The notes beneath the pieces were generated by a model that was not told the origin of the DNA, did no database searches, and worked only from the letters and a program-made list of their open reading frames with translations. 64,000 nt of DNA from Archaeoglobaceae archaeon. GTDB taxonomy: Archaea > Halobacteriota > Archaeoglobi > Archaeoglobales > Archaeoglobaceae. The position numbers and the translations under genes were made by a program. How positions within the stretch are numbered: the first letter of the stretch is position 1; each line of letters starts with the position of its first letter. The stretch is from positions 27,336 through 91,335 of the forward strand of contig WAPX01000053.1 of NCBI GenBank assembly GCA_015520485.1. Direction: 5' to 3'. This document shows positions 1,804 through 63,302 of the stretch, one piece after another.

Positions 1804-1909
1804 TTTTCGATAGGTTTTCCAAGCAGCTCATTATTTGCCAATAAAAATTTTATGCTGTTTTGAGGTTTGCCAAATTTGCAATTCACTCCGTAACTTACTC
1901 GACAGTCAA

Positions 1910-2953: not shown

Positions 2954-2957
2954 ACAA

Positions 2958-3887: not shown

Positions 3888-3957
3888 AGTGGGAATTAAT
3901 ATGCATACGTCATCCTTCGTCAGCTCGGAGTTTAGCAGAACCTTTCCCCCTCGCAGT

Positions 3958-5005: not shown

Positions 5006-5052
5006 ACCAGTAAGTCGTTGCAGAGGTAGAAAAACATTTATGTTGATTTGTT

Positions 5053-6546: not shown

Positions 6547-6610
6547 CTTCATCATCAACTTAACAATTCAATTTTTATGCCTTCGGGTAAAATTGGATTG
6601 GTGAAAGAAA

Positions 6611-13669: not shown

Positions 13670-14359
13670 ATGGGAAACGCTGTAAAAATCGTACTACTGC
13701 TCATCACAGTAATTGCTGTTGGAACTCTCGTAATGCCACAGACAGCTTCGCTTTTCGCCGGACAGCACTGGTGGTACAACATAAGCGGTAACGGAAATCA
13801 GGTGCCGTGTCAGAAGTGCCACGCAGATGTGTACGAGGAACTAAAGTACAGCTATCATAAAAATCTGGGCTGTATATGTCATAGAGCAAACCTGAGCATA
13901 ACGTATGCTGAAGTTCAGGGAGGAAGTATAACGAACTACACTCCCGGAAAACAGGCTCATGCAGCAACAACAGTGGCATGCATGCTCTGCCACCAGATAA
14001 ACGCATCGCTCAACAGCTCGATGCCCGGCCCCTTCGCTGGAGCTTTTAACGTCACAGCCTTTGGTGCGACATCGAACTTCAGGTACTCCAACGCAACTTT
14101 TAACGGTTTATGTGCTGCGCACAACGCTTTCGTTGCTAATGCAATAAAGAACAACACGTTAAAGGACTCGACTGAAGCCTGCATAGCCTGTCACATGAAG
14201 GTCAACATCACCTTAAACTTCCATACCATGAGAGGAATAAATATAGTGACAAAGCACGTGATACTCGGATACTATGCTCTAACAGGTTTGAACGAATCCT
14301 ACATAAATGTTACATCTAACACATTCACGTATACAAACGTTACGGAGGTGAAACCTTGA
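13670..14359 (+). CDS. membrane-anchored multihaem c-type cytochrome (3 canonical CxxCH)
   Basis: N-terminal TM/signal helix. CQKCH, CMLCH and CIACH motifs, and about 12 N-x-S/T sequons in 229 aa. Confidence 0.85.
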   Translation: MGNAVKIVLLLITVIAVGTLVMPQTASLFAGQHWWYNISGNGNQVPCQKCHADVYEELKYSYHKNLGCICHRANLSITYAEVQGGSITNYTPGKQAHAATTVACMLCHQINASLNSSMPGPFAGAFNVTAFGATSNFRYSNATFNGLCAAHNAFVANAIKNNTLKDSTEACIACHMKVNITLNFHTMRGINIVTKHVILGYYALTGLNESYINVTSNTFTYTNVTEVKP

Positions 14360-37995: not shown

Positions 37996-38136
37996 CTTGT
38001 GCTTGTGTGCCGTTCCTTATTTAATAAATCTCAGACTCCTATAGTGCCGCTTCGGAATTCATTAAAACAGAGATAATTAAATTACCAACAAGAATCCTTC
38101 AGTAACTCAAAAATCGGAAATTGTGACGCATCAAAA

Positions 38137-38560
38137 GGCTGTGTCAAGTTAACACCTCCAGCAATTACAGTGAGCCATGAAACTCTCCAACCAGCTCTGA
38201 ACCTCTTCGTTCTCTCCTTAAACCCAGAAAAGAATCCTTCTGCGGCATTTCTCTCGAGGTTTCGTGTCTGTATTCTAAACCAAGCCTCTGTAAAGCCTCT
38301 GTGCAGGATCCTCTATCAACGACGATTTCTGGCTTATTTTCGCAGTGTTTAAGGATCTCTTTAAGGAAAACGTAAGCTTCAAAGCTTCCTCTACCTTCAG
38401 AAGCCATACAGCATTCCTTCGAATCAATCTACAGCAGCCCATACAAAGATCTGTTTCTTCTCAAGTTTTTATCTTTGTTTCATCTATTGCAATAAGCCTT
38501 CTCTTCCTCTTTCTCGGTCGCTTTAAGACTCTGAGTTACCTTCACAAATTTACCTTGTCA
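38137..38560 (-). mobile_element. second decayed IS6-family-like remnant (broken transposase)
   Basis: KPEIVVDRGSCTEALQRLGLEYRHET... and, upstream, LIAIDETKIK-stop-EKKQIFVWAAVD. An end-like sequence TGTGTCAAGTTAACACC lies at about 38139. Alignable by eye with 12004-12470. Confidence 0.6.
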
Positions 38561-38608
38561 TTTGTTATCGTAATTTTTTTCAACAGAGCGATCATTACAA
38601 AATACTAT

Positions 38609-39229
38609 GAGTTTAGAGAAAATTTGGGAAGCAGTTAGGAGATTCAAAAGCTCCAGATACTATGCAGATGCTGAATGGGGATCGTGTCAGATCTAGGAAG
38701 GTAAAAGAATTTGTGGAGAAGTTGATAGAGGACTTTTCTGGACTCGATGGAGACCGATTTAAAGAAGAGCTTAGGAACTTCTTTCAAGAGCGTTCAATGG
38801 CAAGGGTGCGGCCCAATTCCTAAAGAGATTGTTGAAAATAATGATTCTACCAAGCTTGCTCTGGCCTTGGTGAATTTACACTTCTCAGAGACGTCAGCTG
38901 AAGAGCGGATAAAGAAATTGATGGAATTACACTCCGTTGGCCCCTTCGTTGCAACTGAACTTGTTGCGTTATTTGATGGAAATTATATCTGCTACCATGA
39001 TAACTTGGTAGAGGCCTTAAAAGACCCAATGATAAAGCAAGTAGTGGAGTATCTGGAAATAGATATGCCAGAAAAAGTCAAAGATGCTGGTAATATTGAA
39101 GATTCTTTAAAGCTAAACGAGATATGCAAGGCGATCAGGAACATTTTCAACTTTAGAGACCTATGGGAAGTTCATGAGTTTCTATGGCACGGCAAGGACA
39201 CGAACTGGAGATTTCAAGATGCACACTAA
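38609..39229 (+). pseudogene. frameshifted gene of unknown function
   Basis: The reading frame continues across three frames: MSLEKIWEAVRRFK..., then DRVRSRKVKEFVEKLIEDFSG..., then the 160-aa ORF 38747-39229. AT-rich. Confidence 0.4.
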
Positions 39230-39235
39230 AGGAGA

Positions 39236-39520
39236 TTAAAGATAGCTTATTGAACTAAAATTGGAGAATAGTTTTGTTATATCTTTCTTTTTTAAACCCT
39301 TCTCAATAAGAGCCTTGACTATCGCTCGCTCTATTTCAAATACTACTTTTGAATACAGTTCGTAGGTATTCTCTTGTAATTTCTCCGGGTCCTTTATTGT
39401 CTTTAACCTATTTAGAGATTGGCTGAGCTCTTTAATGCATTTAACTATCTCTCTCAAAGGTAAAGAATCCAATTCTATTAACTTAGCAATTTGTGCTACA
39501 AGGTTTATTGATTCCATCAT
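39236..39520 (-). CDS. hypothetical small helical protein
   Basis: 94 aa, AT-rich. Its start overlaps the stop of the upstream 62-aa ORF by ATGA. Confidence 0.35.
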   Translation of the reverse strand: MMESINLVAQIAKLIELDSLPLREIVKCIKELSQSLNRLKTIKDPEKLQENTYELYSKVVFEIERAIVKALIEKGLKKKDITKLFSNFSSISYL

Positions 39521-39705
39521 TTTATCAAGCTATGAACCTTACTTCTGCATTCCTCAATTCTATGCAGTACTGCTAAGGCTTGTAAGGATCGTTTGTTCTT
39601 ACCGTACTCTATTAAATCCTTTCCAACGCAGATCCGGTAAATGCATTCATATAATGTTGGAAACACAATTGTTTCACCTTCTTCAAAAGAAAAACTAGCA
39701 ATCAC
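39517..39705 (-). CDS. hypothetical small protein
   Basis: 62 aa, translationally coupled to the 94-aa ORF. No recognisable motif. Confidence 0.3.
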   Translation of the reverse strand: MIASFSFEEGETIVFPTLYECIYRICVGKDLIEYGKNKRSLQALAVLHRIEECRSKVHSLIK

Positions 39706-40019
39706 CTATAACTATTTTTTCTTAGCAAACAATATTAAGTGATTATTTTTATCTCTTATATGGGCCCAAAGGAGCAAGAGTGTAAATACATTTTCCTAGA
39801 ATCCTAGGCCTAAGACAGTTATGAAGTTTTATTGTTGTTCTACCAGACTTTCTAACAATAGGTAGGTGAAAGTAATAAACTCTAAATCCTACTTTTTCCA
39901 GCGTTTGAGAAATTAAGTTTAGAATACTATAATTACTGGAAGTGTTTATCTTGACAGTCCCGCTCTGGTTTATTTCCATTTTTTGTTAAAACTCTAAATC
40001 TAAAATTATTATCTAAATA

Positions 40020-46630: not shown

Positions 46631-47038
46631 TTACCTCATGAAATAGTAAGCGAGAGCTATTATTAGTATTAGGGCTGCTACTGCTATGGCAATGTCTATA
46701 ACAATGAGCTTCCCTCTCGAGTACGGTTTCGCTCTGCGTCTGGGAACTTCTCTGATTACGTTCAGCTCGCAGTCTATGTAACCTTTTTCTATGAGTCTCT
46801 CTATCGCCTTGCTGACGACTATCTCCGGATACCCGGTCATTCTGGATACAGCTCTGACGTTTTTTGTCTCTTTCAGACACCTGAGCACATTAAGCTCGAC
46901 GTCTGAAATCTGCCCTGCCACTCTGAATCTGGCTTTTTCAGTTTTTTGTTTTCTCTTTTCACTTTTTTCAGTTTTCTCAATTTTCTCAGTCTCCATATAC
47001 GTATCGTCGTCCATCAGAGCATCGATTACGTCGCTCAT
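46631..47038 (-). CDS. membrane-anchored winged-helix protein (paralogue of 49849-50226)
   Basis: Start chosen at MSDVIDAL (nt 47038), preceded by GGGGGTGGAG immediately after the MinD stop. Acidic/Lys-rich N-terminus. wHTH NVLRCLKETKNVRAVSRMTGYPEIVVSKAIERLIEKGYID and a C-terminal TM helix. Confidence 0.6.
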   Translation of the reverse strand: MSDVIDALMDDDTYMETEKIEKTEKSEKRKQKTEKARFRVAGQISDVELNVLRCLKETKNVRAVSRMTGYPEIVVSKAIERLIEKGYIDCELNVIREVPRRRAKPYSRGKLIVIDIAIAVAALILIIALAYYFMR

Positions 47039-47049
47039 GCTCCACCCCC

Positions 47050-47799
47050 TCATAGCCTGAGTATGTACTTCAGCTTTCCGTATGGTCTGGGATAAACGTT
47101 CTCCCCGGCAACCCTTCTTGCAAGCAGGTAAAACTCCTCTGACACCTTTGCCTCCGGTTTTACAGCTGTAACTACATAACTTTTTTCCCATCCTCTCTTA
47201 ATTGCCTTTGACTCCCTGATTATGCCTGCGATTCTGCCAACTCTCTTTTCAGCCATGGCAACAGCCCACTTTTCGCCCTTATACCTGTTCACTATTACAC
47301 CTTCAAAATCGACGTCCATCTGATCTATGACCTTTCTCACTCTCCATGCATCCATTATCGATGTCTCTTCCGGATTGAGAACTATGTAGATCTTTTCACA
47401 CCCCATCATGGGTACGAGAGCGTATTTGCTCAGTCCGGCAGCTACATCAACAACAACGAAATCATAAGCCTCTCCAAGCTCTTCGAGTATGTTTGTAAAC
47501 GCCTGAATGTTCTTTACCTCAGAAGGAGTTTGAGACGAGGGCATGACGTCTAAGGAAATATCTCCTACTCTGATTCTGTACAGAGCATCTTCAATTCTGG
47601 CTTTTCCTGAAATAACGTCAATAAGAGTTACATTTGGTTCAAATCCAAAAATGGCGTGCAGGTTCGGGAGAACGACATCACCATCCACGACAGCAACACT
47701 TCCAAAATTCGTTAACACGGCAGAAAGGTTGGCAGATACCGTGGTTTTTCCAACACCCCCCTTTCCGGAACATATACCAACAACTGGCATAAGCTGCAC
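47050..47799 (-). CDS. MinD/ParA-family P-loop ATPase
   Basis: Deviant Walker A SGKGGVGKTT and the Walker B-like motif FVVVDVAAG. 249 aa. Confidence 0.85.
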   Translation of the reverse strand: MQLMPVVGICSGKGGVGKTTVSANLSAVLTNFGSVAVVDGDVVLPNLHAIFGFEPNVTLIDVISGKARIEDALYRIRVGDISLDVMPSSQTPSEVKNIQAFTNILEELGEAYDFVVVDVAAGLSKYALVPMMGCEKIYIVLNPEETSIMDAWRVRKVIDQMDVDFEGVIVNRYKGEKWAVAMAEKRVGRIAGIIRESKAIKRGWEKSYVVTAVKPEAKVSEEFYLLARRVAGENVYPRPYGKLKYILRL

Positions 47800-47906: not shown

Positions 47907-49844
47907 ATGATAAACTATTTATCTCTTTTCATTAATTCGCCCGATATGGCTGCACTCTCAAACTCAGGTAAGAAAGGTGCAGTATTGATTTTCACGATTA
48001 TATTTGTTCTCATACTTTCATCACAACCCTGTCTCGGTTTCTCACCGGCCGATTTTCATGCTGCAATAGTTACTGAAGTTTACAGCTACGGGCATTACAT
48101 TCCACGATACTGCAACGTATTCAAGCCCGGAGACACGATGAAACTGTACTTGGCGGTTGATAACGTGAACGTAAACAGGGCTGCTGCCGTTGACTTCGTC
48201 ATAATCATAAAAGACCCAAATGGTTACGTTGTTTACGGTAATGTGGAAAGCGTAACTACTTTAAGTTATAAAGACAAAATATACAGAGTTATAGACATCA
48301 GCATCCCAGACGACTGGATATGCGGGAAATACACTGTTGACGCTTACGCATTCGACATCCTCAACACTCTCCCAACCCAGGTAAGTTACAACAACCTGTA
48401 CAACAAAATCCTGTACTCCGGCAATGCTTCTCCTTCCATATCCACGATTTCAAGAAAAAATGCTCCTTACGCCAAAAAAGAACTGACGTTCTACGTGAGC
48501 GAAACTCTGCCGGAAAAGTTCTACATCTTCAACCCGAAGTTAGAGGCAAAAACTCTGCCAGTCGGCGTTTCCAACACGCTTGAAGTTTCCGTTCTCAACC
48601 CTGCAGATGTAAACGCCAGAACAACAGTTAGGGTTCTGGTCGACGGCAGGGTTGTGGATTCAAAGGAAGTTACAATTCCGCCGAGAGATGCAAGGAATGT
48701 AGCCCTAACGATCCCACCTCTCAAAGGTGGAACGCACTTTATAAGGGTTGAAGCTGAACACGCAGGCTACATGCTAACCCTGCCCATCGTTATTTCGCCT
48801 TTGATTTACGATAAAAGTATTGTTACCGGACAGGTTCTCAATGGAACAGTCATATATTCTCCAAACAACTACATCCTTGGTAGCTGCGGAATAAGCTCGG
48901 AAAACAACATAAGTCTCAGCAGGGCTCTCAGCAACCTGAACGTATCCAGCATAAACAGAGACGATGCCGTAATCATGATTACGAACATGCTTGCATACGT
49001 TTACAGAACCAACCACTACAGCGGTGTCGTTAACGTAGCTTTGCTCAGAGGGAGCGATAAAAGAGCTGAAATAATACTCCCGCAGTTACTGGACATAGTA
49101 AAAAGGGAAAGTCACGCTCCACTAAATTACGTTGGAGTTAGAGATGCGTTACACCTGAAAGATGTTAAAGTACTGTTCTACGTTGGAAGTCATCCTGATT
49201 TTAAAGTTACTTTTTTAAAGTACTTCTTCAGGAATAACGGTACACTTATATGCGATAACCCGAACTACTGGAGTTCGTACAAAGACGAGCTCGCAAACAT
49301 GCTTCTAACAATCGGCGGGTGGAGAATAGGCTCGAATTCCGGTATATACAATTCCTACTACAACCTGAGGATCGACAAAGGTTTTGTCGTGAAGATTTCC
49401 ACAGTAACGCAGATGCCAACAAAGTTTGAGTTCCTTTCGCTCAGAGTTGAAGGTCCACCCGGCACAGGCATGCCTCCTCTCGTTAACGTCAGCACTCCCG
49501 TGAACGTAACGCTTAAGATCAGAAACGTTGGAAGGAGCGGTGGGGAGGAGATTAAGGTTAACATAAACGGAAAGACTGTGTTCGACAAAAAGGTATTTCT
49601 CGAAACGGGACAGTACAAGACCATAACATTCCAGTACATTCCTCAGAAACCGGGCAGCTACAGAGTTACCGTTCCGGGAACGAGTTTAATGCAGATCTTT
49701 TTCGTCAAGTCACCAAGCGGTCAGGTTGCAGCACCAACTCCGGTCAAAAAACCCCCATCGCACAGAGCGGGAGCGGCAGTGGTCGCAATTTCAGCAGCAG
49801 TACTGGCAGTGCTCGTCATAGCAAGGATACTTCTTAGAGATTAA
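47907..49844 (+). CDS. large secreted, C-terminally anchored protein with CARDB-like domains
   Basis: N-terminal hydrophobic signal (KKGAVLIFTIIFVLILSSQPCLG). CARDB-like modules (LEVSVLNPADVNARTTVRVLVDG..., VNVTLKIRNVGRSGGEEIKVNINGK...). C-terminal TM helix. Confidence 0.5.
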   Translation: MINYLSLFINSPDMAALSNSGKKGAVLIFTIIFVLILSSQPCLGFSPADFHAAIVTEVYSYGHYIPRYCNVFKPGDTMKLYLAVDNVNVNRAAAVDFVIIIKDPNGYVVYGNVESVTTLSYKDKIYRVIDISIPDDWICGKYTVDAYAFDILNTLPTQVSYNNLYNKILYSGNASPSISTISRKNAPYAKKELTFYVSETLPEKFYIFNPKLEAKTLPVGVSNTLEVSVLNPADVNARTTVRVLVDGRVVDSKEVTIPPRDARNVALTIPPLKGGTHFIRVEAEHAGYMLTLPIVISPLIYDKSIVTGQVLNGTVIYSPNNYILGSCGISSENNISLSRALSNLNVSSINRDDAVIMITNMLAYVYRTNHYSGVVNVALLRGSDKRAEIILPQLLDIVKRESHAPLNYVGVRDALHLKDVKVLFYVGSHPDFKVTFLKYFFRNNGTLICDNPNYWSSYKDELANMLLTIGGWRIGSNSGIYNSYYNLRIDKGFVVKISTVTQMPTKFEFLSLRVEGPPGTGMPPLVNVSTPVNVTLKIRNVGRSGGEEIKVNINGKTVFDKKVFLETGQYKTITFQYIPQKPGSYRVTVPGTSLMQIFFVKSPSGQVAAPTPVKKPPSHRAGAAVVAISAAVLAVLVIARILLRD

Positions 49845-49848
49845 CGGG

Positions 49849-50226
49849 ATGATCAGGAAATCGATTGGTGGTATAATGGATGTTGAAAGTTTACCCGAAC
49901 TGTCAGATCTGGAAGAATGCGTGCTTGAAAGAATACTCATGGGAGAGAAAAAGAGTAGTAAAATTACTTCAGGATGCGGAATAACGGAAATAGTTCTAAA
50001 TGTCATCATCGAGAGACTCGTGGAAAAGGGCTACATAGACTGGGAGCTGAATCCAACTGACCTCGCTTACAAAAAGCTTTTCTGGGTTGGAGGAACTTAT
50101 CCGGTGGAATACTACATGGACACGAAGAAGTACCTGAAAATGGTTCTGGAGCTTGCAATAGCAGTGGCGTTCTTCATGTTTATATCGTTCCTTGCAATAT
50201 ACGTAAAAATGCTTTCATGGGGTTAG
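49849..50226 (+). CDS. membrane-anchored winged-helix protein (paralogue of 46631-47038)
   Basis: CVLERILMGEKKSSKITSGCGITEIVLNVIIERLVEKGYIDWELN plus a C-terminal TM helix. Shares the ERL-x-EKGYID-x-ELN block with the other copy. Confidence 0.6.
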   Translation: MIRKSIGGIMDVESLPELSDLEECVLERILMGEKKSSKITSGCGITEIVLNVIIERLVEKGYIDWELNPTDLAYKKLFWVGGTYPVEYYMDTKKYLKMVLELAIAVAFFMFISFLAIYVKMLSWG

Positions 50227-50230
50227 TCGC

Positions 50231-50968
50231 ATGGAGTTCGAACTTGAAATGTTGGCATCGGAAGCTTTTGGACTTACGCTGCTGGCAGGAATGTCCCTAA
50301 TTTTAACACTTTACAAGATGGGATGCAGAATCCCTCTTTTTGAAAGGGTGAGGCTGTTCAGTTTTGGTAAGAAGAGAAAGGACTTCGTTAACTTTTCAAT
50401 TCAGGTTTTAAAGCACGAAAATCCACCGTACGGCAGAATTGCCACAACTCTTACCATTTTCTGCATTCTGCTCTATCTAACTCTATCGCACAAGTTGTTC
50501 TTTGCTGTGGTGGTTTCGGACAGCATGTACCCGACTTTCCAGAGAGGGGATATGTATCTCGCTCAGGCGATATACGTCAATCCAAAACCGGGAGACATAA
50601 TAATGTTCAGGAGACCTGACGTTGGTTTGCCCGTTTCTCACAGAGTGCTGAAGATAGTCGGAAATAAAATATACACTGGAGGAGACGCTTCTGGTCCGGA
50701 TCTGATACCCATAACAAGAAAGGACGTTATAGCTCAGGCAGTAATGGTAAGTGGCAGGCCAATAGTGATTCCCGGAATAGGTAAGTACTTCATACTGAAC
50801 GCCAAGCAGATGAGAAGCATTGGACCCTACGGAGAGGAGTACCTATTTTACCAGCAGCTCATTAAAACCTTCAAGAGCTACGCCATAGCCATAATCGTAA
50901 TCTGCCTAAGTGCCTACGTATATCTGGAGCTGGAGAGCTACAGCTACCGGAAAATGGTGAAAAAGTAA
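50231..50968 (+). CDS. Sec11/SipW-type (archaeal/ER-type) signal peptidase I with extra N-terminal TM region
   Basis: Catalytic Ser box VVVSDSMYPTF, His box PVSHRVLKI and a GD box YTGGDASGPD. TM helices at both ends. Confidence 0.75.
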   Translation: MEFELEMLASEAFGLTLLAGMSLILTLYKMGCRIPLFERVRLFSFGKKRKDFVNFSIQVLKHENPPYGRIATTLTIFCILLYLTLSHKLFFAVVVSDSMYPTFQRGDMYLAQAIYVNPKPGDIIMFRRPDVGLPVSHRVLKIVGNKIYTGGDASGPDLIPITRKDVIAQAVMVSGRPIVIPGIGKYFILNAKQMRSIGPYGEEYLFYQQLIKTFKSYAIAIIVICLSAYVYLELESYSYRKMVKK

Positions 50969-50975
50969 CTCGTTT

Positions 50976-51854
50976 TTAGCTCCTGAGCCACCTGGTAACC
51001 TCACTTATAAACGATCTGGTCTTTCTGAACAGGAAATTTGGCTTGGACTTTGAAACGTATATTTCGTCTCCTTCATTTCTGGACAATACTGTACCCCCAG
51101 AACCTTCACTTCCTTTCTTCTCACTCTTTTCGCTTCCTGCCAGCTCCTGAGCGTACAGGTAGTACAGGTATGCGTAGAGAAGGGACGTTGCAAAAATTAC
51201 GCCCATTAGAGGTGCAACGCCGAAAAGCGTCTGAATAACTATGGACATTGCCGGAACTATTAAAACTGGAATACCCATGACAAGCCAAGCCTCAAACCTG
51301 CTGAACAGTCCGAATTCCTTGGTTATGTATGCCCACCATATTATGTAGAGTACAGGAAACAGGTAGGGAGAATACCCCATGTAGTAGTTCAGCATGAACA
51401 GGTAGGCACCTATGTAAATTAAGCTTACAACGATAGATTTCATGTAAAACGAAATCCTTCCGAGAGGTATGCTCTCCACTTCTGTTTTTTCAAGTCTCTC
51501 TACCTTAGTTGCAAGTTTTTCGAGTTCAGCCTTAACTTCGCTGAGCTCAACCGTACTGTATGCAATTTCCTCAAGAACTGGTCTTAGCCTTGCAAAGACG
51601 AGCTCGTCAAAAACCTCGTCTGTCATTGCAGAAAGCTTTAAAAGCTGCTTGTAGAGCTTCAGACCTCCACCTGTGAGCACTATCCCAAAAGTAAAGAAAA
51701 CGACATCTGTCATCAGGTATTCGAATCCTCTTCCAGATGAAAAATCGTTGTAGAGCGAGACTATTGAAGCGACCAGAACACCCAGTCCAATGACAACGGA
51801 AACTGCAATTACTGTTTTTTCCACGTACTTCATTGCACTGCGTTTCAATCTCAT
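50976..51854 (-). CDS. polytopic membrane protein with central coiled coil
   Basis: 292 aa. Two N-terminal TM helices, a coiled-coil segment (ELSEVKAELEKLATKVERLEK), about four further TM helices and a Ser/Gly/Lys-rich tail. Confidence 0.45.
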   Translation of the reverse strand: MRLKRSAMKYVEKTVIAVSVVIGLGVLVASIVSLYNDFSSGRGFEYLMTDVVFFTFGIVLTGGGLKLYKQLLKLSAMTDEVFDELVFARLRPVLEEIAYSTVELSEVKAELEKLATKVERLEKTEVESIPLGRISFYMKSIVVSLIYIGAYLFMLNYYMGYSPYLFPVLYIIWWAYITKEFGLFSRFEAWLVMGIPVLIVPAMSIVIQTLFGVAPLMGVIFATSLLYAYLYYLYAQELAGSEKSEKKGSEGSGGTVLSRNEGDEIYVSKSKPNFLFRKTRSFISEVTRWLRS

Positions 51855-51896: not shown

Positions 51897-51980
51897 TTCA
51901 GAAAATGGAGTTAAAGCATTTCTGGAAAACATTCAATCTGTGCTGAGCGAAACCGATTTATAGGCTGCAATCGCATTATA

Positions 51981-52892
51981 ATGATAGTGAAGATGAGAAA
52001 AAAAAGTAGCGGTCAGCTCAGCCTAGATGTGCTTGTCGGTCTTACAATATTCATGATTACGTTTATATTTATACTTCAATACTTACCTTCAGTTTTCGTT
52101 GTTCAGAGAAGTGACATATCTCTTAGTTCTGAAGCTTACAGAGTGGCAGCACTGCTTGCTGAAAGTCCCGGGTACTGGACTAACGGAACACATAACGGTA
52201 CTGACTGGGAAAACCACTGGAAGAACAGTGATGTGACCGTGAGAGCCGGTTTGTGCGGTAATAATCCCGGGGAGCTGCTAATATCCAAAATACTGAACTT
52301 TTCCGAGATGTACGAACAGAAGGGATACGACAGCATAGCGGAGATGTTTGGAATCGAGAACTACAACATATCACTGCAGTACCCGTACAGCAACTCATCC
52401 AACCCTGTTTATTCGTACTACAACGGAAAGCCCCTTCTTTCAATAGGAAAACCTGTACCCAGATATGGAGATGTTGTGAGGTATGAGAGAATTGTTTACT
52501 TTGATAATGCCTCTTTCTTTTACGACATTACGACTTCAAAACCGGGAGTAAATAAAACGAAAATTCTGAACGTTACAGCACCCATAGGTGTATTCACGTT
52601 TGTTGTTACAAAAACCGGAATCTGGGGTAACGGAACTGGAGGTAGCTGGATAATCGTAAAAATTAGTAGGGGTAATGGATGGGGCGGGCAAAAAATACTC
52701 AGAATTCCCGCAAATGGGGGTTACCTTGCTCCGGGAGTTTACAACTTGGCAGATCAGATATCTGAGAAAATTCCCGGGGTTGTTAATCTGACTGTCATCT
52801 CTCACAATCTGGCAGGCTATCTGATTTATTCGAGTGCCGGACAGTACATTGCCGGCAGGGTTGTAGCCAAGCTCGTCGTCTGTGTCTGGTGA
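51981..52892 (+). CDS. type IV pilin-like protein (class III signal peptide)
   Basis: N-terminus MRKKSSG|QLSLDVLVGLTIFMITFIFIL. The remainder is sequon-rich and beta-rich. Confidence 0.65.
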   Translation: MIVKMRKKSSGQLSLDVLVGLTIFMITFIFILQYLPSVFVVQRSDISLSSEAYRVAALLAESPGYWTNGTHNGTDWENHWKNSDVTVRAGLCGNNPGELLISKILNFSEMYEQKGYDSIAEMFGIENYNISLQYPYSNSSNPVYSYYNGKPLLSIGKPVPRYGDVVRYERIVYFDNASFFYDITTSKPGVNKTKILNVTAPIGVFTFVVTKTGIWGNGTGGSWIIVKISRGNGWGGQKILRIPANGGYLAPGVYNLADQISEKIPGVVNLTVISHNLAGYLIYSSAGQYIAGRVVAKLVVCVW

Positions 52893-53457
52893 GTGCGGAG
52901 GTGGTTCTTTGAGAGTGTTTACTGACATTAAATTGATTAAATCGGACTGTAAGGCTCAGGCATTTACGTTGGAAAGCATAGCGGCAGCTCTGCTGTTACT
53001 AATAGTGGCTTACTTTCTCTTTCGCTCCACTCTCATAATAGCACCTCAATCCACGCAGGTTGTGGATGTTCAGCTCAGCCAGTACGCAAAAGACACGCTC
53101 AGAATACTGGACAACCCGTCCTCTCCCACAAACGATACGCTGGAATACGTGGTGGAGCACTTGAATTCAAGTGATTTTAAAGAGGTCGTTGCACCCCTCG
53201 TAAACGCCACAAGAGAGTGCTTACCGAAAGATGTTGGATTTAATTTTGCTGTTTACTACTACAACTACACTACGAAAAAAGTTGAGAGATTAAACCTCAC
53301 GGACTTCGAACCATTTTCAAGCACAGTCACAGCTTCGAGGTACATAGTTCTGAACAGCAAGGACTTCGTTAGCGGTTCTCCATTCGTCAGCACAGCTCCT
53401 GAAAGTGGCAACTATCCTGTCGTTGTGGAGGTGAGGTTAACGCTATGGCGGATCTGA
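52882..53457 (+). CDS. type IV pilin-like protein (class III signal peptide)
   Basis: SDCKA|QAFTLESIAAALLLLIVAYFLF. A TTG/GTG start about 5-10 nt after GGAGGTGG (about 52906-52914) is more likely than the track start. Confidence 0.6.
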   Translation: MSGECGGGSLRVFTDIKLIKSDCKAQAFTLESIAAALLLLIVAYFLFRSTLIIAPQSTQVVDVQLSQYAKDTLRILDNPSSPTNDTLEYVVEHLNSSDFKEVVAPLVNATRECLPKDVGFNFAVYYYNYTTKKVERLNLTDFEPFSSTVTASRYIVLNSKDFVSGSPFVSTAPESGNYPVVVEVRLTLWRI

Positions 53458-53855
53458 TGAAGGATAACAGGGGTCAGATAATTATAATACTGACGCTGTT
53501 CATATCAGTCCTGCTTGCAGAGCTATCTCTTGTTTACACTCAGAACATACTTGCGGGAATGGAGAGCAGTACAGCTCAGCTGATGTTTCCCAAGTACCCC
53601 ATAGAAAACCTCAGAAGAATAGCGCTGGTTGACCTGAAAAACTACGCCAAGTCAAATCCATCTGGATTTCTTGAATACGCACAGAAGATTGACCAGCAGG
53701 TTGAGAGGCTCTATGCTGAACACGGCTGTTATGCGAGCATAGATATACTCGATGTAAAATATACCAGCTCAAATCAAATCTCTTGCTATACTGTTAAAAT
53801 AATATTTTTCAATTCAGGTGTAGATTATGAAGATACGGAGACGGTTGCTGTGTGA
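53445..53855 (+). CDS. type IV pilin-like protein (class III signal peptide)
   Basis: MKDNRG|QIIIILTLFISVLLAELSLVY. 136 aa. Confidence 0.6.
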   Translation: MADLMKDNRGQIIIILTLFISVLLAELSLVYTQNILAGMESSTAQLMFPKYPIENLRRIALVDLKNYAKSNPSGFLEYAQKIDQQVERLYAEHGCYASIDILDVKYTSSNQISCYTVKIIFFNSGVDYEDTETVAV

Positions 53856-56208
53856 TAGAAAAGGAGTGTCTGTACTTGTGGAATACATCCTGATAATCGG
53901 AGTACTTGCCCTGCTCATGACGTTCATAGTTCCCCAGCTGAACACTCTGATGTCCAGAATGCCAACTGCAAACGCCATGAAAAATCAGTTTCAGGACGTT
54001 GCAAGTGAAATCTCAGCTCAGATAACGGATATGCTTCTTGTTTCACCAAAAAACGGGATTGTTAAAAGCAGGGTTTACATGCCCGCTTCGGTGGGCAGGG
54101 AAACTTATGACGTTAAACTGGAGAACGGTAAGCTCGTGGTTAAATCAAATCTGTGGACACAGAAAGTTGATCTGGGTAAATCAACTTTGGGCTTCTTAAC
54201 CAAGGGGAGGACTTTCAGCAGCGAGTTAACTCACGAGATAGTTCTTAATTCGTCAATTCATATACTGCCCACTGCAGTGGCAATAGTTTACCCGACTGAG
54301 GCTGCTGTCGGAGAGAACGTAACTCTTGACATGACGCATTCGTACGGGGAAGGAACACTGTACTACAGATGGATAATAAGCAGCAGTAGCGGTACTATTA
54401 CCGTTTTACCACAAAACTCTTGGAAAGAATACAATCCAGTAAACCCCGAAACCGGGATAACGAGCTGGAAATTTAACGCTCCGGGTAACTACACGGTAAA
54501 GCTGGAAGTTAAAGATAGCCTTGGTTACGTAAGCTCGGATAGCGTTGAAGTTAACGTTACCTCAAATCCACAACCGAAACTCTACGTGAACAAGTACATC
54601 GTTCCTTCAACAATCACACCCGGGCAGAGCTCAACTATTAACATCTTTCTCTTTGGTAACGGAATAAACCAGACTTCACTCAACATCACGGTCATTCACA
54701 CAATAGATGCGTCTGGAAGCATGAACGAGGTCACACCGCTTTCAAGTACAACTGGAAATGTTACCTCTTCTCCGACAATTGTAAAAATAAACATAAACAA
54801 CAGCAATTACGACTACCTGATTTTTGTTACAACTAACGATTTCGACAGCTTTTACTGGGACTACGGTATAAGACCAGTATCCCTGTACGTTAAATCTCCA
54901 GATCAAAACTACTTCGTACAGGCCTCAGACGTCTGGTCAAATGGGAGTCAGGATGGTTACGGTTACTTAATCACCAATCCAAACACAGGCACGTGGTATT
55001 TAGCAATAAACGACCTGAACCCAAAGTCCGATGAAACCGTCAGTATTCAGGTTTACTCGGGACGTTACTTTATCAGGTGGTTTGAAATTTACGGCACGGT
55101 TTACAGCACTTCTGTTGTTGCACACAAAACTTATAGCAGTTATGGAATAAACGTTCCGGAAGAAGCAACGGAATTCGATGTACAGCTGATACCTGTTCAA
55201 ACTCCAGCAAGTCTCTATTTGTGGTTGAAAGATAACTCCACGGGCACATATTACATTAACTCCTCAAACTACTGGATAAACATAACCAGTCCATCAGCCG
55301 GCTATACGGCGTATGTTGTTCCAAGTATGCCTCCAGACACAACTACGGGATACTACCTCAATACGTACATACCAAAGATAGATGCTGCAAAAATTGCTGC
55401 CAAGACGTTTAACGGGATGCTGAGAAAGTACGACTACGTTGGTGTTGTAAAGTTCAACGACTATTACGCCACCTACGTTGTGAACCCGCCAACCAACGAT
55501 ACCGATTCGGTGAACAATTCCATAGATTTGATAACTGCTGATGGTTACACTCCAATGGCTTCAGGGTTGAGTTACGCAATAAACGAGCTCGACAGCTTTA
55601 ACAATAGCAAAAACAGCCCTGCAGTTGACGTTATAATTCTTCTCTCCGATGGAAACCCCAACATAGATCTGGCTGGTCACTACAACGTCAGACAGGCGAT
55701 TTCAGATACCATTAAGGAAGCAGAAATAGCGAAAAGCAAGGGCTACATAATCTACACGATAGGTTACGGAACTGATGCAAACGTAACTCTTCTACAACAA
55801 ATAGCGGAAATCACCGGGGGTAAGTTCTACTTTGCCGCCAGCGCTCAGGAACTGAAGAACATATACCAGTCCATAGCAAAAGATGTCTTCACAAAAGTAG
55901 CCGAAAACGTTACCGTTACGGATGTGATACCCTCCGGTGTTGAAGTACTTTCAACGACTGGAAACGTGACGAAAACTGCAAAGGGGACTGTTGTTTCTTG
56001 GACGCTTCCAGTTGTGAGAATTAACCAGAGCTGGACGGGAAGCATAACGATTACCACGACCAGAACTGGAGTTGTTCTGACAGATGTCGTTAACGTTTCA
56101 AACGTAACGTACTTTGACGTTGTGAACTCCAAACAGGTTACAGTTCCTTTGCCCGTTAAGGAGCTAAACGTTACCGTAACGAAGTCGGCGAGTTTTGAAC
56201 TTAAATGA
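53827..56208 (+). CDS. large pilin-like adhesin: class III signal + PKD-like domain + vWA domain (split by an insertion) + C-terminal beta-sandwich
   Basis: CDRKG|VSVLVEYILIIGVLALL. PKD-like WKFNAPGNYTVKLEVKDSLGYVSSDSVEVNV. vWA MIDAS residues DASGS (aa 294-298), GYT (T575) and LLSDG (D608). Confidence 0.75.
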   Translation: MKIRRRLLCDRKGVSVLVEYILIIGVLALLMTFIVPQLNTLMSRMPTANAMKNQFQDVASEISAQITDMLLVSPKNGIVKSRVYMPASVGRETYDVKLENGKLVVKSNLWTQKVDLGKSTLGFLTKGRTFSSELTHEIVLNSSIHILPTAVAIVYPTEAAVGENVTLDMTHSYGEGTLYYRWIISSSSGTITVLPQNSWKEYNPVNPETGITSWKFNAPGNYTVKLEVKDSLGYVSSDSVEVNVTSNPQPKLYVNKYIVPSTITPGQSSTINIFLFGNGINQTSLNITVIHTIDASGSMNEVTPLSSTTGNVTSSPTIVKININNSNYDYLIFVTTNDFDSFYWDYGIRPVSLYVKSPDQNYFVQASDVWSNGSQDGYGYLITNPNTGTWYLAINDLNPKSDETVSIQVYSGRYFIRWFEIYGTVYSTSVVAHKTYSSYGINVPEEATEFDVQLIPVQTPASLYLWLKDNSTGTYYINSSNYWINITSPSAGYTAYVVPSMPPDTTTGYYLNTYIPKIDAAKIAAKTFNGMLRKYDYVGVVKFNDYYATYVVNPPTNDTDSVNNSIDLITADGYTPMASGLSYAINELDSFNNSKNSPAVDVIILLSDGNPNIDLAGHYNVRQAISDTIKEAEIAKSKGYIIYTIGYGTDANVTLLQQIAEITGGKFYFAASAQELKNIYQSIAKDVFTKVAENVTVTDVIPSGVEVLSTTGNVTKTAKGTVVSWTLPVVRINQSWTGSITITTTRTGVVLTDVVNVSNVTYFDVVNSKQVTVPLPVKELNVTVTKSASFELK

Positions 56209-56920
56209 GGTGAGATGGGTGGGCTCCAGAGCAGTTTCAGAAGTCTTCGGAAACCTTTTGATTTTGATCATAATAGCTATAACCATCTCCGTCATGCTCT
56301 CCTACGGATATCCAGTAATAATGTCCGGGCAGGAAAAGGTAAAGATGAGAAACGTCATTTCGTCGATGGTGTTTGCGAAAGAGAAAATAGAAGTCGTTTC
56401 TTCAGACGTTGAACCTTGCACGACCCTGAAGTTTCCACCATCGGGCGGAGCTTTAAGCGTCTCGAAGAGCTGCACACTGTACGTTTACGTAAACGGTAAA
56501 GAATTGAGTTACGTTCCAGAAAAACCGGGAGAGCTGCTTTACACTTCAGGAAATAGGAAGGTAGCAGTGGAGCTGGGAGGGGTCTGGGAAAGCGAGGGCG
56601 GCAGGAGCTGGATGGTCTATCCCCCCCTCATAGAGGTTGCAGGGGGGAACATTGTCGTTACCATACCTGCTATCTCAGGTATAGGTTCTGCAGGAGGTTA
56701 CGGGATTGCGAACGTTCTTCTGAGTTATAACTCGACCGAAATACACGACTACGCAGATTCGTACTTAAAACTTGTAATACAGACTGAATTTCCACAGGCG
56801 TGGGAAAACTACCTGAAAGATAGTGGCTTTGCTGTAACTGCGAGTGGAGATACCGTTACTGCCACTGCAAGCGGAAACGTTACGCTGGTCGTGCACTGGA
56901 TAAACGTTTCAATTTACTGA
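56195..56920 (+). CDS. type IV pilin-like protein (archaeal pilin N-terminal, DUF1628-type)
   Basis: GSRA|VSEVFGNLLILIIIAITISVML. Confidence 0.65.
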   Translation: MNLNEVRWVGSRAVSEVFGNLLILIIIAITISVMLSYGYPVIMSGQEKVKMRNVISSMVFAKEKIEVVSSDVEPCTTLKFPPSGGALSVSKSCTLYVYVNGKELSYVPEKPGELLYTSGNRKVAVELGGVWESEGGRSWMVYPPLIEVAGGNIVVTIPAISGIGSAGGYGIANVLLSYNSTEIHDYADSYLKLVIQTEFPQAWENYLKDSGFAVTASGDTVTATASGNVTLVVHWINVSIY

Positions 56921-56922
56921 GA

Positions 56923-57750
56923 GTGATTGATATGACTGGCTCGAGTGCGATATACGGTAAAACAGAAGGTAAAACGGTCATTAAAGAGCTCAAAAACAGG
57001 AAAGGCGTTTCAAGCGTACTCGGCTATACCTTAATACTTGGAATAATCATACTCGTTTTATCGATAATTTTTGTGCACACATACGCAATGGTTAATCAGG
57101 CAAAAGAAAAAGTAAGATATGGCAGCATGGCTCAGGGTTTTGAAAAGATACAGAACACTGTAAACTACGTTGCTTACTCAGGAACGAGCGAGAGGTACGT
57201 AAGAATACTGCTGAACGAAGGGAGCTTAGCTGTTACGAAGGGGTGCAGGATAAACATATCCGTTTACAACACCACGAGTGCGACTCCCGTTTACAGTTGT
57301 TCCACTTATTCAGGGGCAGTAGACTACTCCTACGGGAACTACAGGATTGCTTTTGAGAACGGTGGCGTCTGGCTGAGCAGTCATGGAATGGCTACCATCG
57401 TTTCCTCGCCAAGAATATTTATATACAAGAAGATAGTAAACAATCAAACTATTTTCTTCATGACCCTTACTCTCATAAACGGTAAGGGTTCTGCTGGAGG
57501 TAACAGCTTTGCAAGCATCTTCGTTAAGTTTAACTCATCTCAGGTAAAAGTTTTTGGACCGGGTTACGTCAGCATAAACATAACTTCAGACTTTGCAAGA
57601 GCATGGTACGAGTACTTCAACAGCCTGAAAAACGGTCAGGGAAACGCAGCTTCCATACAGACAAGCCTCAGGGGAAACAACGTTTACGTGACGATACACT
57701 TTTCCGAAATGATACTGACTTCGTACAGGCTCAACGTGAGTGTGAGCTGA
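56923..57750 (+). CDS. type IV pilin-like protein (archaeal pilin N-terminal, DUF1628-type)
   Basis: KNRKG|VSSVLGYTLILGIIILVLSIIF. Confidence 0.65.
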   Translation: MIDMTGSSAIYGKTEGKTVIKELKNRKGVSSVLGYTLILGIIILVLSIIFVHTYAMVNQAKEKVRYGSMAQGFEKIQNTVNYVAYSGTSERYVRILLNEGSLAVTKGCRINISVYNTTSATPVYSCSTYSGAVDYSYGNYRIAFENGGVWLSSHGMATIVSSPRIFIYKKIVNNQTIFFMTLTLINGKGSAGGNSFASIFVKFNSSQVKVFGPGYVSINITSDFARAWYEYFNSLKNGQGNAASIQTSLRGNNVYVTIHFSEMILTSYRLNVSVS

Positions 57751-58133
57751 TGCTGTCCTACATTTTAGTCGTCAGAGTAATGGAAGATTTCGTAACCACT
57801 GTTGGCTCTATCGGCGAGATAAATTTCAGGAAAGGGTATTACATGTACGTCGGGAGTGCGAATACTGGCATTTCGAGAATATGCAGGCACTTCAGGAAAG
57901 AGAAAAAACTGAGATGGCACATAGATTACCTGACGACTTCCAGATTTGCAGAACCCGTCTGTGCTTACTTATTTGATAGGGAGGAATGCTACCTCTCCAA
58001 AATGCTATCAGAAGAATACGCAGGCGTGAAGGGTTTTGGCTGTTCAGACTGCAGGTGCCACACGCACCTTTACTACTCCCGGGAAATGCCCGCTTTTAAA
58101 GCCAAGGTGTTATACCCCGAGGATTGCCTGTAA
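57750..58133 (+). CDS. GIY-YIG superfamily DUF123-like protein
   Basis: GYYMYVGSANTGISRICRHFRKEKKLRWHIDYL pattern plus the C-terminal CSDCRCHTHLY. The ATG overlaps the TGA of the last pilin gene (cTGATGc). The track ORF start at 57603 lies inside the pilin gene. Confidence 0.6.
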   Translation: MLSYILVVRVMEDFVTTVGSIGEINFRKGYYMYVGSANTGISRICRHFRKEKKLRWHIDYLTTSRFAEPVCAYLFDREECYLSKMLSEEYAGVKGFGCSDCRCHTHLYYSREMPAFKAKVLYPEDCL

Positions 58134-58653: not shown

Positions 58654-59337
58654 TCATCCTGTTAATACTCTCACGAGCCTCGGGTTTTTCTCCAAAACAA
58701 CTCTGAATCCGAGTTTTTTTAAGAACTTACCTGTGTTCGAATCCGGAGCGTGAAGCAAAACCTCAAGCAAATCATCGGGAGTGTCAACATCGCAGCCGGC
58801 AAAGAAAGAGTCGAAGATTTTGAGCTTTAAATTCATGAATCTGGCTGTGCTGACGTGTTTGACAAAGCTACCGTAGTGGTAACTCGTCCTGAAAGGCTTT
58901 CTTACCAGCAGCATGTTTGTTCCACCCCTCCTGCCCGGAGCAATTACAACATCCCCTTCCTCCTGCAGAAACTTTCTTAAGATTTTCTCGTTGAGCAGGG
59001 GCAAGTCGGAAACTATTACCGCCACAGGTGATGAGTTGATAAGATCGTTCAGCACATCGTTTATCGCCGTGTTCAGGTCTCTCGTATCAACCTGAAGTTT
59101 CGCAGGTTTCAGCTTTCTTTGCATTTCCTCAATTTTCTCGTCGCTCTGAAGCAGGATTACCACATCTCTAACACCTGAATTGAATACCGTTTTCAGCACG
59201 TCGATGAGCATGAAAAATGCAAGCTCTTCCCTCTCTTTTCTATTCAGAAACAGGGAAAGTCTCGATTTTGGATTTAACTGCCGGAAGGGAATTACAGCAA
59301 CAACTTCTGCAACGACTTCTGCCATAACCTCCACCAC
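58654..59337 (-). CDS. cofC: 2-phospho-L-lactate guanylyltransferase (F420 biosynthesis)
   Basis: AVIPFRQLNPKSRLS...MLIDVL N-terminal signature and a later GGTN motif. Confidence 0.8.
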   Translation of the reverse strand: MVEVMAEVVAEVVAVIPFRQLNPKSRLSLFLNRKEREELAFFMLIDVLKTVFNSGVRDVVILLQSDEKIEEMQRKLKPAKLQVDTRDLNTAINDVLNDLINSSPVAVIVSDLPLLNEKILRKFLQEEGDVVIAPGRRGGTNMLLVRKPFRTSYHYGSFVKHVSTARFMNLKLKIFDSFFAGCDVDTPDDLLEVLLHAPDSNTGKFLKKLGFRVVLEKNPRLVRVLTG

Positions 59338-61065: not shown

Positions 61066-62493
61066 TTGATTTTTCTCACCAGCTCATTACAGGTAATGAA
61101 TGTTTTTGAGGAAGCGAGGAGAGAGCTGTACTTTCCACCGGTTCGGTTCAGGCTGGTTGATGGAGAGAGGATATGGCTCAACTTTGCGGGCAGATACAGG
61201 AAGCCCGAGGTCGCTGCTGGTAGAGGTGTTTTCTTCAAGTTCTCAAATTCAGCACTTAAAGGTCTTTTCCAGCTCTCTCTTGCTAGGTGGATGAAACACC
61301 CGTATTCCCTGAAAGTCGCTCTGCTTGAGGAGTTCTGGTTAAAGAATTACGAAAAGAGAAAGAGAATCGTGGAGTTGTTCGACACCGTGGTATGCGCGCT
61401 CTACCTGATTGGAAGAGGTTGCTACGCTGTCAGATCAGCAATGGTTGAGGCCATGTGCTCTGATAAAGCTAATACTGCTGTTAAGGCTTACCTCTCGAGA
61501 AAAACAGGGCTTAACTTTGGAGGAAAACTGGATGACGAAGAAGTCAGGAAAGCGGTTGGGGCAATGGAAAAAATAAGCTTCGAAAGGTGCTCGAATCTGG
61601 AGGTGCTGAGACAGAACCTGCAATCCTTTGCAGAAATAATAGACAACTTGATAGAGAGCAACAAGGAGGAAATGCTCGAATTCAACATAAGTGCTGTGGA
61701 TAAAGCAATTCAGGAAGTCGCGGGAGAGGTTGGAGTTAAGGAGTTCAGAGAAATTTCGGAATACTTTGGAGTTGGAAAGGGTGCTGGAGATGAGAGAAGT
61801 GCCGACGTGAGGTGGTACATGCAGAGGAGTGCGAGGTACAGCGTGAGAGTTGAAGGTTCCGTGAACGCGGGAAACTATCCCGGTAGACTGGTGGATTTTT
61901 CACCGGACGAGGGGGTGGAGACTTTCTCTCCGGTGGAAAGCCTTGGAAAAGTCCTTCCGGGAATTGCAAAAATGCACAGGCCTGAGGGGTTTGAGGGCAG
62001 GGGAAACGAGAGCAGAAATGCCGTAATAATTCTCGATTCTTCTGGCAGTATGAAAAATCCCGAGAGCGGGAGCTGTGCGATAATCGGAGCTTTTGCAATA
62101 GCGAGGAAGTACATGGAAACGGGTGGTAAGGTTGGAGTCGTAAACTTCTCGTGGAAAACCAAATGCCTCAAACCGAGCAGGAGCGAGGACGTTTTCAAAG
62201 TCTTAGCGGAATATCAGGGTGGAGGGACTGAGCTTAAAGCCGATGTCGTTGTCGATTACGTGAGGAGTGAGGCTGAGGGTTACGACGTCATACTGATAAC
62301 GGATGCGGGAATAGACAACCTCGGAGAGGTAAAGGAAATGCTCAAAAAGCTGAAGGAAATCGGATGCAGGAACTACGTGATATGGATATCTTCAGAGGCT
62401 TTCAGGAGGCAGAAAGACGAACTGTCGAAGCACGCCAGGGTGATACCGGTAAGTGATGAAAGAGACATACCCAAAATAGCAATCACGATTTAA
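61066..62493 (+). CDS. cytoplasmic protein with C-terminal vWA domain
   Basis: No signal peptide. Helical N-terminal region of about 300 aa. vWA with a complete MIDAS (ILDSSGSM, GGGTEL, LITDAG). The likely start is MNVFEE at nt 61096. Confidence 0.7.
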   Translation: MIFLTSSLQVMNVFEEARRELYFPPVRFRLVDGERIWLNFAGRYRKPEVAAGRGVFFKFSNSALKGLFQLSLARWMKHPYSLKVALLEEFWLKNYEKRKRIVELFDTVVCALYLIGRGCYAVRSAMVEAMCSDKANTAVKAYLSRKTGLNFGGKLDDEEVRKAVGAMEKISFERCSNLEVLRQNLQSFAEIIDNLIESNKEEMLEFNISAVDKAIQEVAGEVGVKEFREISEYFGVGKGAGDERSADVRWYMQRSARYSVRVEGSVNAGNYPGRLVDFSPDEGVETFSPVESLGKVLPGIAKMHRPEGFEGRGNESRNAVIILDSSGSMKNPESGSCAIIGAFAIARKYMETGGKVGVVNFSWKTKCLKPSRSEDVFKVLAEYQGGGTELKADVVVDYVRSEAEGYDVILITDAGIDNLGEVKEMLKKLKEIGCRNYVIWISSEAFRRQKDELSKHARVIPVSDERDIPKIAITI

Positions 62494-62507
62494 TAATTTG
62501 GGAGGAG

Positions 62508-63302
62508 TTGAAGGTGAAGGAGAGTGCGAGGAAAGAGATGCTAAAGGACGTTTTAAAAGGATTTGAAGAAAGAGAAGTTAAGCTGGAAAAGCTCGGGGAA
62601 GAGAAGAGTTTGAACGAGCTGAAAAACATAGTTTTACACTACCTCGATCTGGAGCTGAAGGGGGAATTTCAGCTTAAACCGAATAAAGTTTTTGAGCTTG
62701 GCAGAAAGATGAGAAACGAGCACTCTCTGACTCTGAAGGACGTGGAAAGGCTCGTAAACTTCGCTACTCCTGATGCGTTTAAAGAGAGGACAGGAGATAT
62801 AAAAATGAGGCTGTGCCACCAGTTTTACGAAAATTACCTTGGATACTTCGTTTCCGGGCTGTACCACGACATAATAGGAGATAGAAGGCTTAGAATAGAT
62901 TTATCAAAGTTACCAGGGTTTATAATAAGGAGCAGAATTGGCGTTAAATGGGGTTTCGGCTACAAACACCCGGGAGGGGTGCTGATCATTTCCGGTTATG
63001 CTGGAGGCTACCTGGGAGAAAAGATGAGAGGCGGTACAATAATTGCCAGCGGATACACAGGAGATTACGTTGGAAAGGACATGAAGGGGGGAAAAATTGT
63101 GCTCAAGGGAAATACCGGCTGGAGACTTGGGGATGGTATGAGTGGTGGAAAAATAGTTGTTGTGGGAAATGCCGGGGAATTCGTTGGAATAAACATGAAA
63201 TCTGGATTGATAAGAGTTAAGGGAAAAGTCTTATCCTTTGGAAGGAGAACGGGCGGAAAAATCGAGGTCTGGAAAGATAGGGGGTGGGTTGAGGTTCAAT
63301 AG
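62508..63302 (+). CDS. GXGXG-motif beta-helix protein (FwdC / glutamate synthase C-terminal domain-like)
   Basis: Repeats GYAGGYLGEKMRGGTIIASGYTGDYVGKDMKGGKIVLKGNTGWRLGDGMSGGKIVVVGNAGEFVGINMKSGLIRVKG. The N-terminal 130 aa are unassigned. GGGAGGAG lies 5 nt before the start. Confidence 0.8.
   Translation: MKVKESARKEMLKDVLKGFEEREVKLEKLGEEKSLNELKNIVLHYLDLELKGEFQLKPNKVFELGRKMRNEHSLTLKDVERLVNFATPDAFKERTGDIKMRLCHQFYENYLGYFVSGLYHDIIGDRRLRIDLSKLPGFIIRSRIGVKWGFGYKHPGGVLIISGYAGGYLGEKMRGGTIIASGYTGDYVGKDMKGGKIVLKGNTGWRLGDGMSGGKIVVVGNAGEFVGINMKSGLIRVKGKVLSFGRRTGGKIEVWKDRGWVEVQ

Follow-up and report, generated by a model that had tools for sequence, protein, structure and literature searches.

The six co-directional, closely packed open reading frames (ORFs) at 51981-57750 on the + strand of this 64-kb stretch of DNA from an uncultured Archaeoglobaceae lineage (hereafter the window) very probably encode the pilin-like proteins of a type IV pilus of euryarchaeal clade 2, also called the PilB4-type system, whose assembly would depend on a machine encoded elsewhere. 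A 2026 preprint names such loci 'System 2' and notes their large adhesin-like proteins and the unknown function of these loci. The original prediction had recognised a set of pilin-like genes with no assembly machinery in sight and held that it could not be placed in any described archaeal filament type. That placement can be made, because the same families in the same order have been catalogued as clade 2 pilins; the set is thus already described, and its detachment from the ATPase gene is a known pattern.

All six predicted proteins begin with a short charged leader and a glycine or alanine, followed by glutamine (genes 1 to 3) or valine-serine (genes 4 to 6) and about 20 hydrophobic residues. 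With the predicted cleavage site marked by a slash, the N-terminus of gene 1 reads MRKKSSG/QLSLDVLVGLTIF, and the cleavage-type motifs are CKA/QAFTLESIAAALLLLIV in gene 2, NRG/QIIIILTLFISVLL in gene 3, GSRA/VSEVFGNLLILIII in gene 5, and NRKG/VSSVLGYTLILGII in gene 6. Alignments showed this class III signal motif to be kept in all six ortholog families, at identities down to 36-41%, and in the homologs of Methanococcoides and Haloferax; within the DUF7289 family, it occurs in almost every one of the 150 best representatives. A loose class III regular expression applied to the 226 window ORFs of at least 60 aa picked four genes of the set and no further small pilin in the window; genes 2 and 3 were missed because they fall slightly under the chosen hydrophobicity cut-off. 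The six proteins are of the class-III-signal, pilin-like architecture that had been proposed for them, with cleavage predicted from sequence.

Profile searches of the ORFs assigned five of the six to Pfam families. Gene 1 matched DUF7287 (E=1.7e-9), gene 2 matched DUF7288 (E=5e-17), and genes 5 and 6 both matched DUF7289 (E=1.5e-23 and 5.1e-24), while gene 4 combined DUF7266 (2.4e-8) with a VWA domain (2.7e-14) and PKD_4 (9.5e-5); gene 3 was without a match in the Pfam scan. Chance is excluded by the range of these E-values, from 1.7e-9 to 5e-24, together with the conserved motif. DUF7289 is a large archaeal family, as its profile gathers 1832 cluster representatives of 220-680 aa. The last three genes had been thought to fit the DUF1628-type pattern, and here the match to Pilin_N (PF07790, formerly DUF1628) was confined to gene 6, at 21.6 bits against a cut-off of 25.2, with none for genes 4 and 5. 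The mature proteins had also been described as dense in N-x-S/T sequons. This stood for genes 1, 2 and 4, which contain 10, 5 and 22 sequons versus composition shuffle means of 2.8, 1.5 and 11.7, and failed for gene 3 (none) and gene 5 (three), neither of which is above composition expectation; the mean in 30 other window proteins was 0.35 per 100 aa.

The closest guide to the identity of the set is Archaeoglobus veneficus SNP6 (CP002588.1, ~93.9-103.5 kb), where six orthologs of 295, 178, 138, 790, 234 and 250 aa are followed by genes for a T2SSE ATPase (534 aa), a T2SSF platform protein (627 aa) and a DUF123 protein (128 aa). The window resembles this locus in having the same six families in the same order, at near-identical sizes, with DUF123 downstream. 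Comparison of the window proteins with the A. veneficus set by phmmer gave E-values from 8e-39 (gene 2) to 1.2e-146, including 6.7e-75 for gene 1 against the 295 aa protein and 2.5e-47 for gene 3 against the 138 aa protein. Gene 4 and the 790 aa protein are 39% identical over 100% of the length, and in A. veneficus, too, PKD and VWA domains are part of one fusion protein of ~790 aa (36-41% identity). The two loci differ in that T2SSE and T2SSF stand between the second DUF7289 gene and DUF123 in A. veneficus, whereas the window has neither, and in their upstream neighbours, which are Nob1/OPRT/GT2 in A. veneficus and MinD/CARDB/S26 in the window. Makarova et al. (2016; PMC4858521, Table S4) catalogued the A. 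veneficus genes as clade_2 pilins arCOG06117/04652/06552/03926/02911/02911, five of them FlaFind-positive and one PilFind-positive, beside a FlaI-type ATPase, TadC and a Uri-superfamily endonuclease. The same authors described a PilB4-type system with its own pilin set, in which arCOG02911 tends to duplicate (PMC4858521).

A clade 2 set is defined by arCOG06117, 04652, 06552-07777, 03926 and 02911 in fixed order. The arCOG labels of the window genes were taken from their A. veneficus orthologs, and the order of their Pfam families matches that of Methanococcoides, Haloferax mediterranei, A. veneficus and Methanolobus. In the haloarchaeal PilB4-type locus, modelled in Fig. 4B of Makarova et al. 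2016 (PMC4858521), the order DUF7287-DUF7288-X-DUF7266-DUF7289 and the class III type N-termini are those of the window; unlike in the window, the set directly follows pilB-pilC. On pHME505 of H. mediterranei, for instance, a KaiC-like gene, T2SSE (931 aa) and T2SSF (674 aa) precede DUF7287-DUF7288-DUF7261-DUF7266-DUF7289. This locus differs further in its DUF7266 protein of 147 aa, which is without PKD or VWA, in its 314 aa DUF7261 protein at the third position, and in its single DUF7289 copy.

The modules of Methanosarcinaceae (Methanococcoides methylutens and Methanolobus sp.) share with the window the six positions and the lack of pilB and pilC within 10 kb, and differ in having a small DUF7266 and DUF7308 extensions on the last DUF7289 copies. 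The M. methylutens module consists of DUF7287, DUF7288, one unassigned protein, DUF7266 and three DUF7289 genes, in that order. We also observed that in this species (CP199767.1, 5357-7465) a 702 aa Arch_fla_DE (archaellum FlaD/E-type) protein is encoded directly upstream, at the position of haloarchaeal pilB-pilC, and that in Methanolobus sp. (JASUSG010000001.1, 2841-12307) the six-position module occurs twice in tandem, with a DUF7308 extension on the last gene of each copy. Overall, sets lie directly beside T2SSE/T2SSF in A. veneficus, in one Archaeoglobales metagenome-assembled genome (MAG; L008), in Archaeoglobus sulfaticallidus and in H. mediterranei, and are detached in other Archaeoglobi, Methanococcoides and Methanolobus. 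The original prediction had reasoned that the locus would be an ordinary satellite pilin operon of a described system if its orthologs always sat beside a PilB/PilC pair; they do so in several genomes and not in every one.

A search of metagenomes for gene 4 orthologs found 6 full-length loci, the remainder being generic VWA matches, and a degenerate DNA pattern scan of genome contigs ([IV][AS][FY]ENGGVW) found 14 short loci, mostly in Archaeoglobaceae MAGs.

The N-termini could in principle be ordinary Sec signal anchors cut by a signal peptidase I, in which case the proteins would not be pilins. An archaeal-type signal peptidase I gene does lie about 1 kb upstream of the set. We nevertheless regard this as extremely unlikely, given that the conserved small residue precedes the hydrophobic stretch rather than following it, that FlaFind or PilFind scores the A. 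veneficus orthologs as positive, that homologous sets lie in pilB-pilC operons, and that the linkage between signal peptidase I and the set is confined to this clade. A role of this neighbouring peptidase as the processing enzyme was likewise considered and rejected, in view of the motif standing before the hydrophobic segment and of the missing linkage in other clades.

The positions of the six genes and their neighbours are given in Table 1. A public contig of identical sequence supplied the gene calls, which together with the ORF list confirmed all six + strand ORFs. Their tight packing is real, but not every junction is an overlap or a gap of less than 5 nt, as had been proposed: with the public starts, junctions 1/2 to 5/6 are a 16 nt gap, overlaps of 13 nt and 29 nt, and gaps of 10 nt and 11 nt. 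The true start of gene 1 may be the ATG at 51993 instead of 51981; a TTTATA box lies upstream of this ATG, at 51957. Gene 2 uses a TTG start 5 nt past a GGAGGTG motif, within a longest ORF that begins at 52882. The region had been drawn as ending at 58133, which takes in a seventh, unrelated gene encoding a DUF123 protein; the stop codon of gene 6 and the ATG of this gene overlap as TGATG.

Table 1. Genes of the pilin-like set and adjoining genes in the window
Feature	Position	Strand	Length	Description
Gene 1	51981..52892	+	303 aa	Prepilin-like, DUF7287; arCOG06117 ortholog
Gene 2	52909..53457	+	182 aa	Prepilin-like, DUF7288; arCOG04652 ortholog
Gene 3	53445..53855	+	136 aa	Prepilin-like, without a Pfam match; assigned to arCOG06552 from its position and size
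Gene 4	53827..56208	+	793 aa	DUF7266 pilin-like N-terminus with PKD and VWA; arCOG03926 ortholog; candidate adhesin
Gene 5	56219..56920	+	233 aa	Prepilin-like, DUF7289; arCOG02911 ortholog
Gene 6	56932..57750	+	272 aa	Prepilin-like, second DUF7289 paralog; arCOG02911
DUF123 gene	57750..58133	+	127 aa	GIY-YIG/Uri-type, non-pilin; Pfam E=4.4e-25
MinD/ParA-type ATPase	47050-47799			
CARDB surface protein	47907-49844		645 aa	C-terminal anchor
Small membrane helix-turn-helix-like protein	49849-50226			Weak paralog at 46631-47191
Archaeal signal peptidase I	50231-50968			TIGR02228, 55.8 bits vs 51.85 cut-off
Membrane/coiled-coil protein	50976-51854		292 aa	No family

The reported lack of assembly machinery in the 64 kb was upheld by every search made. 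PilB, PilC and the A24 prepilin peptidase were absent from Pfam/NCBIfam scans of the neighbours and candidate window ORFs, and none was recognised when every window ORF of at least 100 aa was read by eye. When the window was searched by tblastn with the PilB and PilC proteins of A. veneficus and H. mediterranei, the best E-value was 0.26 and no pilB/pilC fragments appeared, and a motif scan for the A24 peptidase signature GxGD[h][KR] found no match in the window. Near-identical contigs extended the search by about 10 kb past each window end, where T2SSE and T2SSF were also lacking. The locus and its neighbours likewise contained none of the archaellum families (FlaB/ArlB, FlaH/I/J, FlaF/G) in Pfam/NCBIfam scans. 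One mark of a PilB4-type system is that the locus also holds genes for the cognate T2SSE ATPase and T2SSF platform protein, and none was found in the ~84 kb. Missing machinery in cis does not exclude membership, because published work counts pilin sets served by a distant machine as part of this system.

This absence could also be read to mean that in this clade the set works without a type IV pilus ATPase and that, since the loss of pilBC, the six anchored proteins form a static surface adhesin complex, perhaps with the five-gene block directly upstream. In this block the genes for the MinD/ParA-type ATPase and the 292 aa membrane/coiled-coil protein are on the minus strand. That block adjoins the set in every covered member of the window's clade (L001, L002, L024 and L030) and does not stand beside it in A. 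veneficus or in the Juan de Fuca (JdFR) lineages. The linkage says little on function, since synteny within the clade extends well past the block, with PfkB and CofC/PHO4 also shared. Furthermore, more than one clade 2 ATPase/TadC locus, usually several, is present in Archaeoglobales genomes (PMC4858521), and the Methanosarcinaceae commonly have detached sets without the block. For these reasons we consider a static complex unlikely, and favour a pilin-like set served by a machine encoded elsewhere. With regard to the MinD-like gene of the block, a MinD/FleN ATPase is among the predicted partners of clade 2 pili (Makarova et al.; PMC4858521). Should complete genomes of the clade prove to lack the clade 2 ATPase and platform genes, assembly would fall to a foreign machine, for instance archaellum FlaI/FlaJ, or proceed without a pilus ATPase; we hold this outcome to be improbable to the same degree, and if true it would represent a new way of using pilin-like proteins.

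A census of Archaeoglobi loci by phmmer, covering those loci that could be fetched, revealed three arrangements. In the first, seen in A. veneficus and L008, the set is followed by pilB, pilC and DUF123. In the second, seen in the window and at least four related lineages, DUF123 follows the set directly. The third, found in the JdFR Archaeoglobus MAGs and others, has the set without either pilBC or DUF123. The DUF123 gene of the window marks, by sequence comparison, the position where pilB-pilC sit in A. veneficus and L008. DUF123 is the neighbour of pilBC in the first arrangement and of gene 6 in the second. Most simply, the clade of the window would have cleanly lost pilB-pilC or moved the pair to another place. 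The region would have been rearranged as well as losing pilBC, since the polyprenyl synthase-CofH-GT2-phosphoribosyltransferase-Nob1(PIN) block that adjoins the set in A. veneficus (3959-8178 of that locus) has its window copy at 844-5005, 47 kb from the set. We also noted a CofC gene just downstream of the pilin set (58654-59337). In A. sulfaticallidus (NC_021169, 213784-220472) CofC adjoins a TadC-TadC-FlaI-arCOG02911 locus (PMC4858521, Table S4), and the CofC neighbourhood of the two genomes may be a shared ancestral one.

With the ATPase and platform genes of A. veneficus and L008 gone and gene 6 abutting DUF123, the set might be taken for a decaying remnant left by a pilB-pilC deletion. 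In the lineages that share the gene 6-DUF123 junction, however, all six genes are intact (56-95% protein identity), the signal motifs and the metal ion-dependent adhesion site (MIDAS) of gene 4 are conserved even in sets diverged to 56-65% identity, and the tblastn search of the window met with no residual pilB or pilC. Decay is therefore very unlikely. The intact genes in the junction-sharing lineages argue instead for a set kept in use after the loss of adjacent pilBC.

Gene 4 stands apart from the other members by its size and domain content. Its AlphaFold2 (AF2) model had a mean predicted local distance difference test (pLDDT) score of 69, rising to ~90 over residues 290-690, and consists of a low-confidence N-terminal helix (13-72), a PKD domain, a VWA domain and C-terminal beta domains. 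The VWA domain is predicted to be split, with the first strand and the DxSxS MIDAS motif at 287-300 and the remainder at 517-691, separated by a confidently predicted beta-rich insert of ~215 aa (~300-516); the Pfam VWA match is limited to residues 533-681 because of this insert. The MIDAS residues D294-x-S296-x-S298, T575 and D608 are intact, and are invariant in 12 orthologs. In a Foldseek comparison the model matched, among others, an inter-alpha-inhibitor heavy chain (2.4e-13) and two VWA adhesins of pilus tips, SpaC (2e-8) and Mfa5 (4e-8). By these likenesses gene 4 is plausibly a candidate metal-dependent VWA adhesin, and the earlier suggestion that the large member acts as a tip adhesin is plausible for a 793 aa protein with PKD and VWA domains and an intact MIDAS.

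The gene 5 model (AF2, 41 sequences) reached a mean pLDDT of 90.1 and showed a 59-residue helix (3-61) with a beta-sandwich head. The type IV pilin fold is defined by a long N-terminal helix and a globular beta-rich head, and both are present in the model, which has the general type IV pilin 'lollipop' shape. A sequence search of the PDB gave PilE1 as the best match, at E=0.077. Gene 3 is only weakly similar, at the N-terminus, to the proteins encoded at the third position in Haloferax (DUF7261) and Methanococcoides, and hhalign of gene 3 with these two gave probabilities of 6-12%.

Taken together, the data suggest how the set could work. The six preproteins would insert into the membrane, where an A24 prepilin peptidase encoded elsewhere would cut after the conserved glycine or alanine. 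A PilB/PilC pair, also encoded elsewhere, would then assemble the mature hydrophobic helices into a filament or into its priming and tip complex, and the gene 4 product would display its metal-dependent VWA adhesin domain. The bulk subunit may be one of the six or a PilA-type pilin encoded elsewhere. For this clade, the use of machinery from another locus is established: PilB3-C3 assembles pilins encoded elsewhere (PMC4858521, section 11), PilB paralogs of Haloferax volcanii have been shown experimentally to cross-complement (PMC6491452), and detached pilin sets are already discussed by Makarova et al. (PMC4858521).

Several points weigh against this reading. PilB, PilC and the A24 peptidase were not found across the ~84 kb searched, so that a partner machine elsewhere in the genome is assumed, and leader cleavage is predicted. 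The gene 5 model had no significant Foldseek match against the PDB. In the prediction of Makarova et al. (PMC4858521) the major pilin is arCOG03926, a poor fit with the 793 aa fusion. Finally, neither a filament nor a function has been demonstrated for any PilB4-type system, and in H. volcanii only pilB3C3 gives visible pili (2026 preprint).

Elsewhere in the window, two adjacent secreted proteins with many heme-binding CxxCH motifs, likely multiheme c-type cytochromes, are encoded at 13670-15630, near an Fpo/Nuo-like membrane complex (~16.7-26.6 kb), and are very rich in sequons (~5 per 100 aa). At 61066-63302 a 475 aa protein without a Pfam match, with a C-terminal VWA-like MIDAS (ILDSSGSM), is followed by a GXGXG-motif protein; conservation of the two together extends to the relatives L001 and L002. 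The segment at 38001-40000 has a low GC content (0.37 vs ~0.45-0.47 elsewhere) and few long ORFs.

The locus shows, within one family, a pilin set that has been cleanly separated in nature from the genes for its ATPase and platform protein, with an ancestral-looking order retained in A. veneficus. It thus provides a defined comparison for studying how pilin sets in archaea find the right machine when that machine is encoded at another locus. In this PilB4-type set, the protein with the VWA fusion may reasonably be taken as a candidate adhesin. The analysis also links the names DUF7287, DUF7288, DUF7266 and DUF7289 with the clade 2 pilins known by their arCOG numbers, which is of small practical value; a literature search found no papers mentioning any of these four families, and a Haloferax open-issues paper contained nothing on pilins.

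Among bacteria, minor-pilin or tip sets include FimU-PilVWXE with PilY1, TadE/F/G and GspHIJK. These differ from the window set in signal motif and peptidase type, which are archaeal here. By analogy only, they resemble the window set, with its five small or mid-size pilin-like proteins and one large VWA protein, in encoding several low-abundance pilin-like proteins together with one large VWA protein. Because a 793 aa protein is implausible as a bulk subunit, and because of this likeness to bacterial minor-pilin operons, we infer that the six genes may form a minor-pilin or tip set, with gene 4 as its putative adhesin.

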